Positions 2,068 to 38,746 of a stretch of DNA of 42,051 nt are shown piece after piece. Below the pieces are notes generated by a model, which was not told where the DNA came from, ran no database searches, and saw only the letters and a program-made list of their open reading frames with translations. The translations under genes and the position numbers were made by a program. Within the stretch, counting starts at the first letter, position 1. Each line of letters begins with the position of its first letter. This DNA comes from Candidatus Methanosuratincola thermotaenarum. Lineage in GTDB: Archaea; Thermoproteota; Methanomethylicia; Methanomethylicales; Methanomethylicaceae. The stretch spans positions 1-42,051 of the forward strand of contig JAULTB010000003.1 in the NCBI GenBank assembly GCA_038801655.1, given 5' to 3'.

Positions 2068-3769
2068 CGGGGATTCCGGGTTGCTTGCGAGGCTCTCAAG
2101 CCCGATAGCCCGCCGCCTAAGCCTCCGCCTGTACCAGGGCGAGCTTTTGGTTTCCCCAGACTCATATGGCAGGAAGGTGGCGGTTGTTGCCATGATCTCA
2201 TCCGCCATGTCCTCCGGGGCTTTGGCTCTCCTGGCTCTGGGGCTCTGCGGCCTGGCAGCCGCGCCTCCATGGCTGCTGATCGCAGCCGGGGCGGCTGCCC
2301 TCCCTTCATGGTTCTTCTTGGCTTATCTATGCGCGAGGCCACTCCTTTCATCGATGAGCAGGAAAAGCGCCTGCGAGAGGGAACTCCCGTTCCTGACAGC
2401 CTTCCTTGCAATCGCCTCTGCATCGGGAATCCCTGTCCAAGCCGCGCTTGAGAGGCTTAGGCACTCGGCATTCCTGCACGGGTTCAGGAGCGAGGCACAG
2501 AGGATCGAGAAGGTCAGGCGCCTCTATGCGCTCCACCCGTATGATGCCATGATCTTTGAGGCAAGGCAACACCCCTCCGATCGCGTAAGGGATCTCTACT
2601 TCTCTGTTGTCGCCGCCCAGAAGCAGGGCGATGCTGTGCCCTCGGTGCTCAGGGATGAGCTGATGAAGGTCTTCTCGCACCTCCAGGGAACGATAAAGAC
2701 CCTCTCAGACAAGTTCTCCATGATCGCCTCTGCGGAGATGATCGCTTTCATACTCGTCCCGATGGGGGCGCTCACGCTCGGCACAGTATTCAGCTCGGCG
2801 GTATCGCTGCCTACCCTGGTGGCCGCATGCATTGGCCTCCCGAGCCTAACCGCGGTCCTGCTGGGCATAATGATCGATTCGTCCCTCCCTAAGGAGCTCA
2901 CTGCCCCTATGCCGATGAAATGGTTCTCAATGGCGCTTGCTGCCATCCCTCTTGGCGCGATCCTGGCCGCAATCCTCTGGGTTTCGGGGATCCATGTTCC
3001 AGCTTACCTTCCATTCGGCGCAGTCCTCCTCGCCTCGCTCGCAGCAGCCTCTTTGCACTACAGCCCAATGCGGAAGGAGATCAGCCAGATCCTCGCCGCC
3101 CTCCCTGCCTTCACCAGGCTCGTAGCCGAGGAGGTGAAGAAAGGGAACTCGCCAGGCATGTCCATAATACACTTCTCTGAGGCGAGGGCTTTCAACCGGC
3201 ACTTCGACAGTTTCCTGCACAGGATATCTGCCTTCCTTAAGATAGGCGTGCCGATATCAGAGGTCGCAAAGGCAGTGCGAGCCCCATGGGTCGTCAAGGC
3301 AGCATTCGAGCTGATAGACGAGTCCGAGAGGATGGGGTCTGAACCGAAGAGCCTCGACCACCTCTCCGAGCTCGTCTCGAACCTGAGCCTCTGCATGAGG
3401 GCCCTAACGTCCCAGACCCGGCTCTTCACAGCTGTGAGCTACATGAATACAATCGTGCTGACTTTCACCACGGTGGTCGCGGTAGACGTGATCGGGAGGC
3501 TATTCGCTGGGGCCCTCGGCAGCGTAAGCATCAGCCTGCCGTTCGGCCTCTCGTTCATGACTGGATCCCAGTTCGAGGTCGCATCTGCAGTCGCGTACAT
3601 AGCAGTCATTTACGACGCATTCCTGCTCGGCATAGTCGGCGGCAAGCTGAGCAGGGGAGGATCTCTCGCGGACGGCCTAGTGCCCGCAGCAATTTGCGTA
3701 GCAATCTCGATTGCCGGGTTCTTGGCATTCCGGGAGCTAGGCCTGATAAGGTTCATCTTCGGGGTTTGA
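2060..3769 (+). CDS. FlaJ/TadC-like polytopic membrane platform protein (type II secretion system F-domain family)
   Basis: The ATG overlaps the ATPase stop by 8 nt, so the two form an operon. The 569-aa product has many hydrophobic helices flanking two soluble helical segments, the usual FlaJ/TadC layout. Confidence 0.7.
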   Translation: MPDGDSGLLARLSSPIARRLSLRLYQGELLVSPDSYGRKVAVVAMISSAMSSGALALLALGLCGLAAAPPWLLIAAGAAALPSWFFLAYLCARPLLSSMSRKSACERELPFLTAFLAIASASGIPVQAALERLRHSAFLHGFRSEAQRIEKVRRLYALHPYDAMIFEARQHPSDRVRDLYFSVVAAQKQGDAVPSVLRDELMKVFSHLQGTIKTLSDKFSMIASAEMIAFILVPMGALTLGTVFSSAVSLPTLVAACIGLPSLTAVLLGIMIDSSLPKELTAPMPMKWFSMALAAIPLGAILAAILWVSGIHVPAYLPFGAVLLASLAAASLHYSPMRKEISQILAALPAFTRLVAEEVKKGNSPGMSIIHFSEARAFNRHFDSFLHRISAFLKIGVPISEVAKAVRAPWVVKAAFELIDESERMGSEPKSLDHLSELVSNLSLCMRALTSQTRLFTAVSYMNTIVLTFTTVVAVDVIGRLFAGALGSVSISLPFGLSFMTGSQFEVASAVAYIAVIYDAFLLGIVGGKLSRGGSLADGLVPAAICVAISIAGFLAFRELGLIRFIFGV

Positions 3770-17161: not shown

Positions 17162-17695
17162 TTGGAAGAGCCCGTCTCATCCTCCCCTATTTTTTCCGGC
17201 AGGGCAATAAGCCTCAAAGTCGAGGATGTACGCTTGCCAAGCGGAAAGCTTGCCCGCAGGGAGACCGTGATCCATCCTGGGGCCGTGGCCATCGTGGCCT
17301 TGGAAGGCGGAGACGTCCTACTTGAGCGGCAGTACCGGCACACGGCGAAGAGAGTGATCTGGGAGATCCCGGCTGGGACGATCGAAAAAGGCGAGGGTCC
17401 AGAGGAGTGCGCCAGGAGGGAGCTGACCGAGGAGACGGGATACACGGCGGAAAAGATGGATCGTGTATTCAGCTTCTATGCCGCGCCTGGATACAGCACA
17501 GAAATCATACACCTCTTCCTAGCCCAGGGGCTGAAGAGGTCATCGAAGAAGCTGGATGAAGACGAGGAGATCGATGCTGTATTCGTCCCGATCTCGAAGG
17601 CTATTGAGATGGTCAGGGAAAACGAGATAGAGGACGCAAAGACTGCGATAGGGATACTCTTCTTCGAGAGGTTCTTGGGGAAGGCCATGGGGTGA
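17162..17695 (+). CDS. NUDIX hydrolase (ADP-ribose pyrophosphatase-like)
   Basis: Nudix box is GTIEKGEGPEECARRELTEETGY. TTG start. Confidence 0.8.
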   Translation: MEEPVSSSPIFSGRAISLKVEDVRLPSGKLARRETVIHPGAVAIVALEGGDVLLERQYRHTAKRVIWEIPAGTIEKGEGPEECARRELTEETGYTAEKMDRVFSFYAAPGYSTEIIHLFLAQGLKRSSKKLDEDEEIDAVFVPISKAIEMVRENEIEDAKTAIGILFFERFLGKAMG

Positions 17696-18228
17696 TGGGT
17701 TTGGGAGACGACAGCGTCCACATCTCCCGGATCAGGAAGAGCAGGGGTCAGGGATTCGAGCGCGATCTCGTTAAGAGGTACCGCGCTGCTGGGTGGTGGT
17801 CGTACAGGACCGGGGGCAACAGCGCATACCTACCGGACGTGATGGCCACAAACGACAGCACCGGCGAGCTCGACGTGGTTGAGGCAAAAGCAGGCGCAAA
17901 GGACCACCTTTATGTTGAATGGGACCAGATCGAAAGGGACATCTTCCTCATAAATGGGTTCAAGCTCTACCCGAAGCGCAGGATAGTGCTCGCCTTCAAA
18001 TTCCTCTCAAAGAAGCGTAAGGGTGACGGGTACCTCAGGAGGGAGCTCAGGGAGTTCTACAAGCTTGTGCCAGAGGAGTTGTGGGGTCCCCTCAGGGGGC
18101 AGACGATATGTTGCCACTATGAGAGGGGCAACGACCTGCCCGACTACTCGCCGCCGTTCAAGATCAAGGGCAAGAAGGTGAAGGTGCAAGAAGATCGCGG
18201 GGAAGGCGGCGAAACCAGCGGGGAATGA
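17695..18228 (+). CDS. Hjc-like PD-(D/E)xK nuclease (archaeal Holliday-junction-resolvase fold) with a Lys/Glu-rich C-terminal extension
   Basis: GQGFERDLV...R...LPDVMA...LDVVEAKA matches the Hjc pattern G..fE-(x)n-PD-(x)n-E.K. The start overlaps the Nudix stop (GTGATG). Confidence 0.5.
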   Translation: MGLGDDSVHISRIRKSRGQGFERDLVKRYRAAGWWSYRTGGNSAYLPDVMATNDSTGELDVVEAKAGAKDHLYVEWDQIERDIFLINGFKLYPKRRIVLAFKFLSKKRKGDGYLRRELREFYKLVPEELWGPLRGQTICCHYERGNDLPDYSPPFKIKGKKVKVQEDRGEGGETSGE

Positions 18229-18373
18229 TGCGCCGGATACCTTTCTTGATCCTGCCGATTGATCATCGGCGCTGCACATCCGCCTCAAATCAATGCCCCT
18301 TCCCAAAGAGGCATGGCTTGATTGGTGCGGGCATTAAAAGCTTATTTCTGACCCGCTACAATTATCTCGGAGG

Positions 18374-18778
18374 GTGTGCGAATTGCCTTCTGACTCGGAC
18401 GACGAGATCGAGATTATAAAAAAGCGCAAGCTCCTCGAGATGGAGCGCAGGCTAGCAGCAATGAAAAAGGCACAGGCCGAGGCGCCGAGGAAGGTCGATG
18501 AAGATCCGCTCTCGCTCGTGAAAAAGCGCCTGATCGGGAGGGGACCAGAGGTCTTGGAAGCAGCCCTCTCCCAGTACCCCCAGGCAACAATGGAGGTTGT
18601 GAAGTACATCGCTAACCTGTACAGGACGGGCAAGCTCAACGAGGACATCCCTGGGGAGGACCTTTACGAGCTCTTCTGCAACTTGGGGATGCCCGTGAGG
18701 CTCGAGACCTCGATAACATACATAAAAGACGGGAAACGCGTCCCGCTCAGCCAGAAGTTCAAGACCAATGATGATTGA
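18374..18778 (+). CDS. PDCD5/TFAR19-like dsDNA-binding protein
   Basis: Acidic N-terminus and IIKKRKLLEMERR, then LSLVKKRL...PEVLEAAL...VVKYIANLYRTGKL, as in archaeal PDCD5 homologues. GTG start; an alternative TTG lies 9 nt downstream. Confidence 0.6.
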   Translation: MCELPSDSDDEIEIIKKRKLLEMERRLAAMKKAQAEAPRKVDEDPLSLVKKRLIGRGPEVLEAALSQYPQATMEVVKYIANLYRTGKLNEDIPGEDLYELFCNLGMPVRLETSITYIKDGKRVPLSQKFKTNDD

Positions 18779-18816
18779 CCCGTTCGCAATAAAAAGAAAA
18801 TAAGGAAAGAAGCAGC

Positions 18817-19926
18817 CTATTTTTTGAGGCTCTCGAGCACAAGCTGCGAGAGCGTCTTTATTGGCGGGTAACCTGCCTCCTTGGGCAATCCGCCCATGTG
18901 GTACATGCAGAATGCGCATCCTACGCCGACCTCTGCGCCCTTCTCTTTCGCTTCGGACATCAGCATCTCCGCCAGCTTGTTCGCGATATCGGGGTAAAGC
19001 GGCTTCACGCCCGCGGGAGCCCCGCAGCAGACCGCCTCCTTCCCGCTCTCTTTGTATTCGACCAGATCGCCGATCCTCAGCAAGACCTCCCTCGGAGACT
19101 GAATCGTCCCGGTCCTCCTGACCAGGGGGCAGGGATCCTTGTAGATTATCCTCTTGCCTTGGGCTGCGCTGGGGCTGATCCTCCCTTCCTTGACAAGCTG
19201 ATCTAGCAGCTCAGAGATATGCAAAACCTCGTACTCCGGCTTCCTGAACAGCGCAGGGTACACGTTCTTGAAGACATCGTAGCACGAGGGGCACTCGGTG
19301 ACGACAGTCCTGGCGCCTGTGGACTCGAAGAGCGCCGTGTTCTTCTCGGCGAGCTTCTTGGCCTCCTCGAGCATTCCGGTATCAATTAGGAAGAGCCCGC
19401 AGCACCACTCCTTTTCCCCGAGGGTTGTGAAATCCACGCCGGACTTGATCAGGAGCTCCATAGTCGCCTTCGCAGTCTCTGGAAGCTTGATCCCTGACCA
19501 GCACCCCGGCACATAGAGGTACTTTGCCTTCTCAGGGGGCTTGAACCCTTCTGGCAGGCATGCGGTGCGCTTCTCGGGAGGCGCAGCCATCGGCGATCCC
19601 ATCTTGATTATGGCATCTGCTATCGTCTTGTACTTCTCAGGCACCATGTTCCTCTTCCGCAGCTCTGCTCTCGCAGCCTGGACGACGACAGAGATCGGTA
19701 TGTCCATCGGGCAGGAGCTATGGCACCCGTCGCACCTGGTGCACAGGTACAGGGTCTTCAAATCCTCCTCATTGAGATCCTTGCCCTCGAAGAGCGAGAT
19801 TGCCGCCTCGACCTTGGCCATGGCCCCGTACTTCGGGTTGTTCGTCGCTTTGAAGAAGGGGCACACCTCGACGCAGGCTCCGCAAAGGGTGCATGTCGAA
19901 GCAATTTCTGGGATATTCTCTAACAT
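18817..19926 (-). CDS. Fe-S oxidoreductase with a 2x[4Fe-4S] ferredoxin domain plus two CCG domains (HdrD/GlpC/GlcF-like)
   Basis: Cluster motifs are CTLCGACVEVCP and CTRCDGCHSSCP. CCG-type motifs are EWCCG and AVCCGAPAG, with CPSC and CAFC. The start is set at MLENIPE; the track's 59-codon extension runs into the grpE promoter. Confidence 0.8.
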   Translation of the reverse strand: MLENIPEIASTCTLCGACVEVCPFFKATNNPKYGAMAKVEAAISLFEGKDLNEEDLKTLYLCTRCDGCHSSCPMDIPISVVVQAARAELRKRNMVPEKYKTIADAIIKMGSPMAAPPEKRTACLPEGFKPPEKAKYLYVPGCWSGIKLPETAKATMELLIKSGVDFTTLGEKEWCCGLFLIDTGMLEEAKKLAEKNTALFESTGARTVVTECPSCYDVFKNVYPALFRKPEYEVLHISELLDQLVKEGRISPSAAQGKRIIYKDPCPLVRRTGTIQSPREVLLRIGDLVEYKESGKEAVCCGAPAGVKPLYPDIANKLAEMLMSEAKEKGAEVGVGCAFCMYHMGGLPKEAGYPPIKTLSQLVLESLKK

Positions 19927-37232: not shown

Positions 37233-37796
37233 TCAAAGATCCAAAACAACATCGAACAAATCCATCAGCTTTCCAAGCTGCAGCCTTTCCTTATCGTTTA
37301 TTCCAGACCCCTTGTCGCCGAAGAAACCCCCCCAGTAAGCAGTCCCAACAAATGTCATCGCCTGGGCCACTGCTTCACCGAGCAGCTCTGCGCTTCCGGA
37401 CTGCAGGTAGATTGTAATGTCGTTCGCAAAAAGCACAGGCGTTGGCGATGCAATGTACTGTGATAAACATGGCTCGATCGCTAAGGCATTCTGCTTGGCC
37501 AGGCACACAACTTCTTCTGCGGTGGAACCTTCGAGTCGTGGTGCAACTATGCGCTTAGGCGCAGCGTATAGTATCCGCGCCCTTGTCGAAGCGGGAATGG
37601 CAAGCCGCCCGCCCACCTTTCTACCCCCCACGGGCTTCTCTTCCGGGGCCATGTCGATCACTGTTATTGCGCCGGGTCCTTCCGACTCGGCAGCCTCAGC
37701 CAGGAGGCGGCTTAGCAGGGCGGTCTTACCTCTCCCGACCTCCCCGCGTATCAGCGTCTTCTTGCCCTTGATCGCCGCGTAGCTAATCCCATTCAA
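37233..37796 (-). CDS. Uncharacterised P-loop NTPase, translationally coupled to thiW
   Basis: Walker A is GEVGRGKTALL, followed about 25 aa later by ITVIDMAPE. There is no ABC signature. The TTG start is preceded by GGAGGGG at 5 nt and overlaps the thiW stop by 14 nt. Confidence 0.7.
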   Translation of the reverse strand: MNGISYAAIKGKKTLIRGEVGRGKTALLSRLLAEAAESEGPGAITVIDMAPEEKPVGGRKVGGRLAIPASTRARILYAAPKRIVAPRLEGSTAEEVVCLAKQNALAIEPCLSQYIASPTPVLFANDITIYLQSGSAELLGEAVAQAMTFVGTAYWGGFFGDKGSGINDKERLQLGKLMDLFDVVLDL

Positions 37797-38307
37797 TTAC
37801 GCCCCTCCTCTTCAGGGCCAAAATTACAAGATAGCCCATTAATGCCCCGGGGACGCTGCTCATCAGGAAAAAGACTGTGAACAGCTGCCACTGGGCAGTC
37901 AGCCCGAGAAATGGGGGCAACTGGGCTGCACCAATGGCTGGCGCAACCAGGAACGCGCTCAGCAAAGCCCCGATCGCTGTGCCCAACGGCTCTGTGAGGG
38001 CTACTGCGTCTTTCCTGACTAAATAATTGTAAACCAAACCGACCACCAATGCGCCTGGGATCCCACCAGGCAAGGCAAAAAAAGTGCCCGTCCCTATGCC
38101 TATCCGTATTATGCCGATCAGCCCGGCCACAATGCCCGCGTTAAGCGGACCGAGCAGGATTCCTGCAACCACATTTACCATATGTTGGAAAGGGAAGACC
38201 TTTGTTGGTCCCACTGGGAATGCCCCTGGGAAAATCGATAAAGAAACACCAAGCGCAACAAATATTGATGAAAGGACTAACCGGTAAGTTGGGGTTTTTA
38301 AATGCAT
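37783..38307 (-). CDS. thiW: ThiW-type thiazole/thiamine-precursor transporter S-component
   Basis: VFPFQHMVNVVAGILLGP ... GTGTFFALPGGIPGALVVGLVY matches my recollection of ThiW, and a TPP riboswitch lies directly upstream. The in-frame TTG at 38364 (GGAGGG 9 nt upstream) is an alternative start. Confidence 0.75.
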   Translation of the reverse strand: MHLKTPTYRLVLSSIFVALGVSLSIFPGAFPVGPTKVFPFQHMVNVVAGILLGPLNAGIVAGLIGIIRIGIGTGTFFALPGGIPGALVVGLVYNYLVRKDAVALTEPLGTAIGALLSAFLVAPAIGAAQLPPFLGLTAQWQLFTVFFLMSSVPGALMGYLVILALKRRGVIEWD

Positions 38308-38371
38308 TATTTTTTTATTCTTGTAATTAGGCTTTTTCTCAAGATTTTGCCTTTTTGAAGCCAAACAGCAT

Positions 38372-38455
38372 GTCCCTCCGCTGGAATTGCCCAGATCAGG
38401 TTCAAAGGGTCGGCGACGGATCAAGTCACCCTCTCAGCCCCTTTCCAGGAGCTCC
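38372..38455 (-). promoter_or_regulatory. TPP (THI-box) riboswitch aptamer
   Basis: The minus strand reads CUCCUGGAAAGGGGCUGAGAGGGUGACUUGAUCCGUCGCCGACCCUUUGAACCUGAUCUGGGCAAUUCCAGCGGAGGGA. It carries the invariant CUGAGA, ACCC...GAACCUGAUCUGG.(U)AAU.CCAGCG and closing GGGA elements. A TATA-like CTTATAAA sits about 30 nt upstream (38483-38490). Confidence 0.85.
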
Positions 38456-38746
38456 CCCTTTGCACTCCAACTTTCCTGTAAGTTTATAAGTATTCCTATT
38501 ACCTGTTTATAGGGATGGCAAACATTTTTTATTTTAATAGTCAAAACATTTAAACTAGATAATAAAAATTTAAAATTTAGGATTTTTTACCATAATTATA
38601 ATAAGGATTAATAATATTTAATATTATATGGCTTTTCTTATCTTGTTTAAGTTAGTGCTAACCAAATCAGCGAATATTAAAAATTTTTATAAAAATAAAA
38701 GTTATCTATATTTTAAAAAATAATACGAAAAAATTAATTTAAATTG

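Follow-up and report, generated by a model that had tools for sequence, protein, structure and literature searches.

A ThiW-linked P-loop protein family as a candidate non-orthologous hydroxyethylthiazole kinase of Thermoproteota

A small P-loop gene overlaps thiW behind a TPP riboswitch

The window analysed here is a 42,051-nt stretch of DNA from Candidatus Methanosuratincola thermotaenarum, on whose minus strand a TPP riboswitch is followed by thiW and by the gene for a small P-loop protein (Table 1). The riboswitch was matched by RF00059 over its full length, scoring 64.5 bits where the gathering score is 54.3. ThiW was recognized by PF09512 (E 7.7e-35) and, over its cut-off, by TIGR02359 (E 9.4e-37), and its translation most likely begins with ATG at 38,307, because a longer ORF beginning with TTG would overlap the riboswitch. 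The start region of the P-loop gene consists of the Shine-Dalgarno sequence, the spacer cgtaa and the TTG codon (37,796–37,794), and since the thiW stop codon TAG lies at 37,785–37,783, 14 nt are common to both genes. The start position is kept in close homologues, with a protein beginning MKGISY. No promoter-like site that would separate the two genes was detected on the minus strand within thiW by a sigma-70-type scan, a method not made for archaeal promoters. The start codon, the ribosome binding site in the last thiW codons, the overlap and the joint position behind the riboswitch had all been described in a preliminary description of this DNA, and each of them stands, as do the two motifs GEVGRGKT and ITVIDMAPE that it had picked out in the protein.

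Table 1 Features of the thiW locus in the window
Feature	Positions	Strand	Remarks
TPP riboswitch aptamer (THI element), thiW leader	38,356–38,468	−	Rfam RF00059, model positions 1–105 of 105
thiW, ECF-type transporter S-component for thiazole precursor	37,783–38,307	−	174 aa (most likely start); PF09512, TIGR02359
Shine-Dalgarno sequence GGAGGGG	37,802–37,808	−	Within the last thiW codons, 5 nt upstream of TTG; read from the sequence
P-loop gene, 187 aa, TTG start	37,233–37,796	−	ORF; unnamed ThiW-linked family
Walker A GEVGRGKT, residues 18–25	37,722–37,745	−	G18, G23, K24 and T25 conserved in 93–100% of 98 members
ITVIDMAPE, residues 44–52	37,641–37,667	−	Strand beta-2 (model, 44–48) ending in conserved D48 and P51
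Walker-B-like strand VLFAND, residues 121–126	37,419–37,436	−	Model strand 121–125
Tandem pair of short Phage_integrase-family genes, 187 and 181 aa	36,048–37,181	−	Directly downstream of the P-loop gene

Only one TPP riboswitch was found in the genome of the window, and likewise in each of two complete, single-contig genomes of its genus; in all three it precedes thiW and the P-loop gene. TPP riboswitches were also found before the ThiW/P-loop pair at the loci L009, L010, L011 and L027, and none was found upstream of P-loop genes that are unlinked from ThiW (L003, L017, L020, L023, L025). L027 has two of them with 68.3 bits each, one upstream of ThiW (647–758) and one downstream of the P-loop gene (2994–3105), of which the latter presumably serves the next gene. 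Methanosuratincola and a Methanomethyliaceae MAG share the synteny of the P-loop gene with the pair of Phage_integrase genes.

The P-loop protein belongs to an unnamed family

With the 187-aa protein, no Pfam or NCBIfam model reached its cut-off; the sub-threshold matches in Pfam, NCBIfam and PDB sequences were to many P-loop families and at the level of Walker A only. The ABC ATPase model PF00005 scored 14.9 bits (cut-off 25) over residues 2–43 alone, that is, the Walker A region, the ABC signature is absent from the protein of the window, and a string resembling [LFYI]SGG occurs in one of 98 family members, in agreement with the earlier statement that this is not an ATPase of the EcfA type. 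Likewise borne out is the lack of likeness to ThiM and ThiD: PF02110 (ThiM) gave no match at E ≤ 0.1, nor did the ribokinase-fold families of ThiD and PfkB match. For CobA/CobO/BtuR there was neither a Pfam match (PF02572) nor a PDB profile match to CobA, the KaiC and ATPase models of Pfam scored under threshold, and a PDB profile search reached only the Walker A regions of RecA and KaiC. NTPase_1/THEP1 (PF03266) obtained a language-model feature score of 0.80, a lead only, with no Pfam match.

A word-index search retrieved 61 clusters of the family at 90% identity, and an exhaustive search of 1.84 billion representatives retrieved about 256 clusters at E ≤ 1e-3 and 168 at E ≤ 1e-10, almost all with a length of about 165–210 aa. 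In the databases the members are called 'hypothetical protein' or, loosely, 'DUF87', 'HerA domain' or 'SAR1 GTPase', and the organisms named among them are Methanosuratincola, Methanomethyliaceae, Bathyarchaeia, Thermofilaceae, Nitrososphaeria, Pyrobaculum, Infirmifilum and Korarchaeum. Clusters of the ESM Atlas suggest that there are bacterial members in Thermodesulfobacteriota. Furthermore, we noticed a bacterial protein of 545 aa (P0190; L143 2781–4418, L144 1597–3234) in which a distant P-loop domain (residues 8–168, E 2.5e-14) is joined to a full MnmA tRNA 2-thiouridylase, surrounded by an AIRS-family gene, Carb_kinase, TusA, a Se/S carrier and a sulfur transporter.

Of 98 members, 93 carry Walker A. 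Positions with a conservation of 92% or more are G18, G23, K24, T25, D48, P51, G62, P86, R87, N103, N125, D126, G134, T148, Y154, G156, E170 and D182; the values are 93% for D48, 100% for P51, 98% for N125 and 97% for D126. The D48 region (ITVIDMAPE) might supply a catalytic base.

The predicted fold is RecA-like

An AlphaFold2 model computed from the 98-sequence alignment reached a mean pLDDT of 96.4 and a pTM of 0.92. Foldseek against the PDB returned weak matches (TM ≤ 0.54, probability about 1.0) to F1-ATPase, Rho, RadA/RecA, FlaH, KaiC and CobA. In an exhaustive structural alignment of the model, scored as VIA Z and with matches spanning 130–155 residues, the CobA adenosyltransferase (1g5r) came first with Z 13.0 and 143 of 157 residues aligned, followed by FlaH (Z 12.0), Rho (Z 11.9), the cobinamide kinase CobU (9vio, 8yep; Z 11.3), Rad51 (Z 11.2 for 9q25, 10.8 for 3lda), thymidine kinase 1 (2orv; Z 10.5), KaiC (about Z 10) and THEP1 (1ye8; Z 9.6). 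In the ESM Atlas the nearest structures were the family's own unnamed clusters (TM 0.82–0.89), then CobA (0.62) and KaiC-type proteins (about 0.61). Judged by Walker A, the Walker-B acid and these structural matches, the predicted structure is that of a minimal RecA-like (ASCE) P-loop domain in a family of its own. Thus, profile searches and Foldseek led to no confident characterised family, and the model is generically RecA-like.

CobA/CobO/BtuR, CobU and thymidine kinase 1 are the best single-domain structural neighbours of the model, but their identity to the P-loop protein is only 15–18%, there is no profile match beyond Walker A, and these enzymes do not have the family's motifs VIDxAP, APRLEG, ND and YxG or its widely conserved DKGSG. 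FlaH, KaiC and RecA-type ATPases share the predicted fold; the P-loop protein is much smaller and its context is a vitamin salvage operon. The fold alone cannot settle the function, because this class holds oligomeric ATPases as well as small-molecule kinases and transferases. A predicted complex of ThiW with the P-loop protein obtained a score of 0.00, which speaks neither for nor against binding.

The P-loop gene accompanies ThiW throughout the phylum

We surveyed 401 genomes of the phylum from 161 genera and counted the gene arrangements by hand from the coordinates. The P-loop gene is present in 125 genomes (50 genera), ThiW in 127 (51 genera) and both in 124, so that the homologues bear out the link to thiamine metabolism that had been drawn from the position of the gene in the window. 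The one genome with the P-loop gene and no ThiW is 80% complete. Among the three with ThiW and no P-loop gene, two have ThiW truncated at a contig end, and the third, G170, is 99% complete and the sole high-quality genome of this kind. In most cases the two genes are immediate neighbours, on the same strand in 89 of the 125 genomes and divergently oriented in 20; a further six have a divergent pair within about 2 kb. They lie on different contigs in eight genomes, all in the window's own family, and 12 kb apart in one; in the remaining one no ThiW was found. At 39 same-strand loci, a set that leaves out the fusions of L010 and L011 and two rows of reversed order, the ThiW stop is located between −52 and +92 nt from the first aligned P-loop codon.

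Thiamine genes occurred in every neighbourhood examined from distant family members. In Methanosuratincola petrocarbonis ThiW is followed by an overlapping P-loop gene, and in Thermofilaceae the order is likewise ThiW, P-loop. Infirmifilum lucidum (L004, 37% identity) and L007 have a CytX-like permease, ThiDN, ThiW and the P-loop gene; a Pyrobaculum-like contig and G019 have ThiW, P-loop, an ABC ATPase and a small protein without family, with ThiDN just downstream in G019. Further arrangements are a riboswitch, ThiW, P-loop, a 549-aa protein without family and ThiDN (L009); ThiC, ThiDN, P-loop and ThiW (L061); ThiW, P-loop, ThiDN and a DAO-type oxidoreductase (L056); ThiW divergent from an operon of a family-less protein, P-loop and ThiDN (L059); and a TPP riboswitch, ThiW, EcfAA', an EcfT-P-loop fusion and ThiDN (L010). 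The operons of L004, L007, L061, L056 and L010 hold every salvage step except the kinase for 4-methyl-5-(2-hydroxyethyl)thiazole (HET).

Two kinds of in-frame fusion were observed. P0108 joins ThiW (residues 16–177) to the P-loop domain (206–385) and is encoded behind a TPP riboswitch and beside ThiC, and P0169 joins EcfT/CbiQ (5–188) to the P-loop domain (234–409) in an operon that also holds a riboswitch, ThiW, EcfAA' and ThiDN; P0087 consists of a C-terminal piece of ThiW and the P-loop domain. Two word-index searches revealed no longer fused forms, which is weak evidence, and a search for related loci with P0169 returned only generic EcfT genes from Clostridia and others, all without a P-loop domain. 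Long open frames upstream of the P-loop gene in G145, G187 and others were considered as fusions; for G145 (L056) this was rejected, as the frame of ThiW is a different one and Pfam gave no match to the ORF.

EcfA and EcfA' resemble the P-loop protein in having Walker A, an S-component as neighbour and sometimes EcfT in the same operon. The P-loop protein differs from them in the missing signature and the low PF00005 score described above and is about 100 residues shorter. Moreover, it coexists with genuine EcfA/A': at L010, L008 and L062 the P-loop gene stands alongside a dedicated ECF ATPase module, and at L051 ThiW has its own EcfA-EcfA'-EcfT and the P-loop gene is elsewhere in the genome. 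The P-loop gene is therefore not simply a substitute for EcfA.

Phosphorylation of the thiazole is the step without a candidate

PF02110 found matches in 295 of the 401 genomes, but full-length ThiM, defined by model positions 1–245 and E ≤ 1e-68, in only 14. The other matches were partial and C-terminal and lay in frames about 290 or 510 aa long; those in P-loop genomes were rejected as ThiM since they are NnrD-type Carb_kinase proteins, as verified for two examples. True ThiM was found in none of the 125 genomes with the P-loop gene, and none of the 14 genomes with ThiM carries the P-loop gene. G170, which has ThiW and lacks the P-loop gene, carries true ThiM, and there is a chance of about 1 in 51 that the lone ThiW-positive genus without the P-loop gene would also be the only ThiW-positive one with ThiM. 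Mutual exclusion by itself carries less weight than this coincidence: ThiM occurs in about 7 genera, few independent lineages, and the estimated chance of zero overlap at the genus level is about 0.07. In the window's genome, which is about 80% complete, ThiM was likewise not found.

Full-length Thi4 was detected in 210 of the 401 genomes, by hand count in 34 of the 125 with the P-loop gene versus 176 of the 276 without it; 91 of the 125 lack Thi4, and it is present in none of the eight genomes of the window's genus. No true Thi4, no true ThiG and no ThiC were found in the window's genome at its completeness of about 80%. It does have two ThiN-domain genes, which together with the missing ThiC, Thi4 and ThiG suggests salvage of both thiamine moieties. 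These two genes (L043, L044) lie near each other on opposite strands of contig C12 of this genome (G000, 17,520–19,862), and one of them is probably a ThiD-ThiN enzyme, the other perhaps a regulator of the ThiR type.

ThiL and EcfT modules are present in complete relatives. With ThiL and ThiN present, those roles are already filled, and the presence of ThiL led us to discard the P-loop protein as a ThiL replacement. Organisms with the P-loop gene keep the coupling enzyme and ThiL and import the thiazole, and the sole step without a candidate is the phosphorylation of HET. The proposal that the gene fills a missing function in thiamine salvage, as a kinase or as an accessory factor, thus gains support from the linkage, the operons and the missing ThiM.

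Proposed function of the P-loop protein

From the genomic context and the phyletic pattern we predict for the P-loop protein the role of a non-orthologous hydroxyethylthiazole kinase, acting together with ThiW and trapping the thiazole after import, an assignment that we consider somewhat better than an even bet. In the proposed pathway, ThiW would carry HET into the cell and the P-loop protein would phosphorylate it with ATP at or near the transporter, the resulting HET-P being trapped. This would be the ThiM reaction, carried out by an unrelated fold. ThiN, within the ThiD-ThiN fusion, would then join HET-P and HMP-PP to TMP, and ThiL would make TPP, which when abundant would turn off thiW and the P-loop gene together through the riboswitch.

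The predicted reaction and the position in the pathway are those of ThiM (EC 2.7.1.50, PF02110), but the two proteins have no kinship in sequence or fold, ThiM being ribokinase-like and the P-loop protein, according to the model, RecA-like. In bacteria, ThiM is the usual partner of ThiW, as is reported to follow from the comparative genomics of Rodionov from 2002. The proposed trapping resembles the arrangement of the facilitator PnuC and the ribosylnicotinamide kinase domain of NadR, a P-loop kinase that traps the substrate by immediate phosphorylation. PnuC/NadR may serve as a working analogy, with different protein families, a different vitamin and a kinase of another fold class.

The predicted fold class can be read in both directions. 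It includes the small-molecule enzymes CobA, CobU and thymidine kinase 1, which is compatible with a kinase, but the RecA/KaiC/FlaH-like class consists mostly of oligomeric ATPases rather than kinases, and the conserved P86-R87 could be the arginine finger of an oligomer. The fusions to ThiW and EcfT suit a transporter subunit equally well as a docked kinase. Furthermore, the substrate of archaeal ThiW is a prediction, and another paralogue of ribokinase fold could act as the HET kinase.

The main alternative, which we regard as unlikely, casts the P-loop protein as an ATPase subunit that assists or energises the archaeal ThiW transporter. Docked on ThiW or EcfT, it would gate, regulate or power uptake and leave the substrate unphosphorylated. 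Such a role would be in line with both in-frame fusions, with the operons of L008 and L062 (ThiW, P-loop, ABC ATPase and a putative T component), with a predicted fold nearest to oligomeric ATPases, including FlaH, part of a membrane machine, and with R87 as a possible arginine finger. However, complete EcfA/A'/T modules share the operon (L010) or serve ThiW with no P-loop gene nearby (L051), and the P-loop gene is co-transcribed with ThiDN and ThiC apart from ThiW at L059 and L061. An accessory ATPase would also leave the HET kinase step empty in the 124 genomes that have ThiW and the P-loop gene and lack ThiM, and it gives no account of why G170, with ThiW and ThiM, is the genome without the P-loop gene. 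To our knowledge, no ECF transporter of another vitamin has such a P-loop partner. Between the two predicted roles, the evidence favours the kinase.

Less likely still, the P-loop protein might act on some other thiamine-related substrate imported by ThiW, as a thiamine kinase, a carboxythiazole kinase or a CobA-like nucleotidyl or adenosyl transferase on a thiazole derivative. The linkage to thiamine genes would fit equally, the substrate of ThiW in archaea is only a prediction, and the best structural match is an adenosyltransferase, CobA. Against this, ThiDN is kept in genomes without Thi4, often in the same operon, and the coupling enzyme therefore needs a thiazole phosphate and not whole thiamine; ThiL is present; and neither Pfam nor the PDB profile search found a likeness to CobA at the sequence level. 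It is very unlikely that the adjacency is merely inherited gene order and the function unrelated to thiamine, a reading that would accommodate the Methanomethylicia genera in which the P-loop gene lies away from ThiW beside recombinases without a riboswitch (L003, L017) and the distant bacterial MnmA fusion with no clear thiamine context, but not the near-perfect co-occurrence with ThiW across about 50 genera even where the genes are unlinked, the varied arrangements (upstream, downstream and divergent), the two kinds of fusion and the riboswitch control.

Returning to the hydroxyethylthiazole kinase, a bolder form of this assignment may be put forward only tentatively. The protein would be the first of a new family of small-molecule kinases with a RecA fold, docked on ThiW (or EcfT) from the cytoplasmic side and phosphorylating HET on its exit, in a predicted vectorial coupling similar to group translocation. 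ThiW could then function whether or not an ECF module is present, and this would be the standard route of thiazole salvage in many Thermoproteota and some bacteria.

Implications for archaeal vitamin B1 metabolism

The reaction and the partner ThiW are known; the protein family is unrecognised, and its predicted fold is unrelated to that of ThiM. In the literature on ThiW and thiazole kinases we found no description of the family, with a passing mention possible in comparative genomics of ThiR or ECF transporters; the most relevant papers are those of Rodionov on ThiR (2017) and on ECF transporters (2009). Among the Thermoproteota genomes sampled, about one in three import thiazole through ThiW, keep ThiN, mostly lack Thi4 and have no known way of phosphorylating the thiazole. 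These belong to Methanosuratincola and other methanogens of the Methanomethylicia, Bathyarchaeia, Thermofilaceae, relatives of Pyrobaculum and Korarchaeia. If the predicted kinase activity holds true, a gap in archaeal vitamin B1 metabolism would be closed, EC 2.7.1.50 would have a second, unrelated fold, and naming the family would correct metabolic reconstructions and predictions of auxotrophy for these mostly uncultured lineages. It would also offer a tractable model for the coupling of an ECF S-component to metabolic trapping.

Other genes in the neighbourhoods

The ThiW gene of one genus in the window's family has shifted into an operon of its own, ThiW-EcfA-EcfA'-EcfT (L051, G136:C13, 2663–5625), and the P-loop gene has stayed at the old syntenic site beside a recombinase gene, with about 820 nt upstream that hold no called gene. 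Several ThiW operons contain, after the ABC ATPase genes, family-less proteins of 193–244 aa (L062 5513–6247; L008 6579–7160; L052 2051–2677), which are probably divergent EcfT components missed by PF02361; this model gave no match at all in G043 and G170. In genus g69, the family-less protein between the divergent ThiW and the P-loop and ThiDN genes has 450 aa (L059, 3196–4548, plus strand), its stop codon overlaps the start of the P-loop gene, and only weak GTPase-like matches to cobW, HypB and the GPN-loop were obtained. The 549-aa protein encoded between the P-loop gene and ThiDN at L009 (5609–7258, plus strand) is hydrophobic, belongs to no Pfam or NCBIfam family and might be a further transporter, possibly of the pyrimidine moiety.
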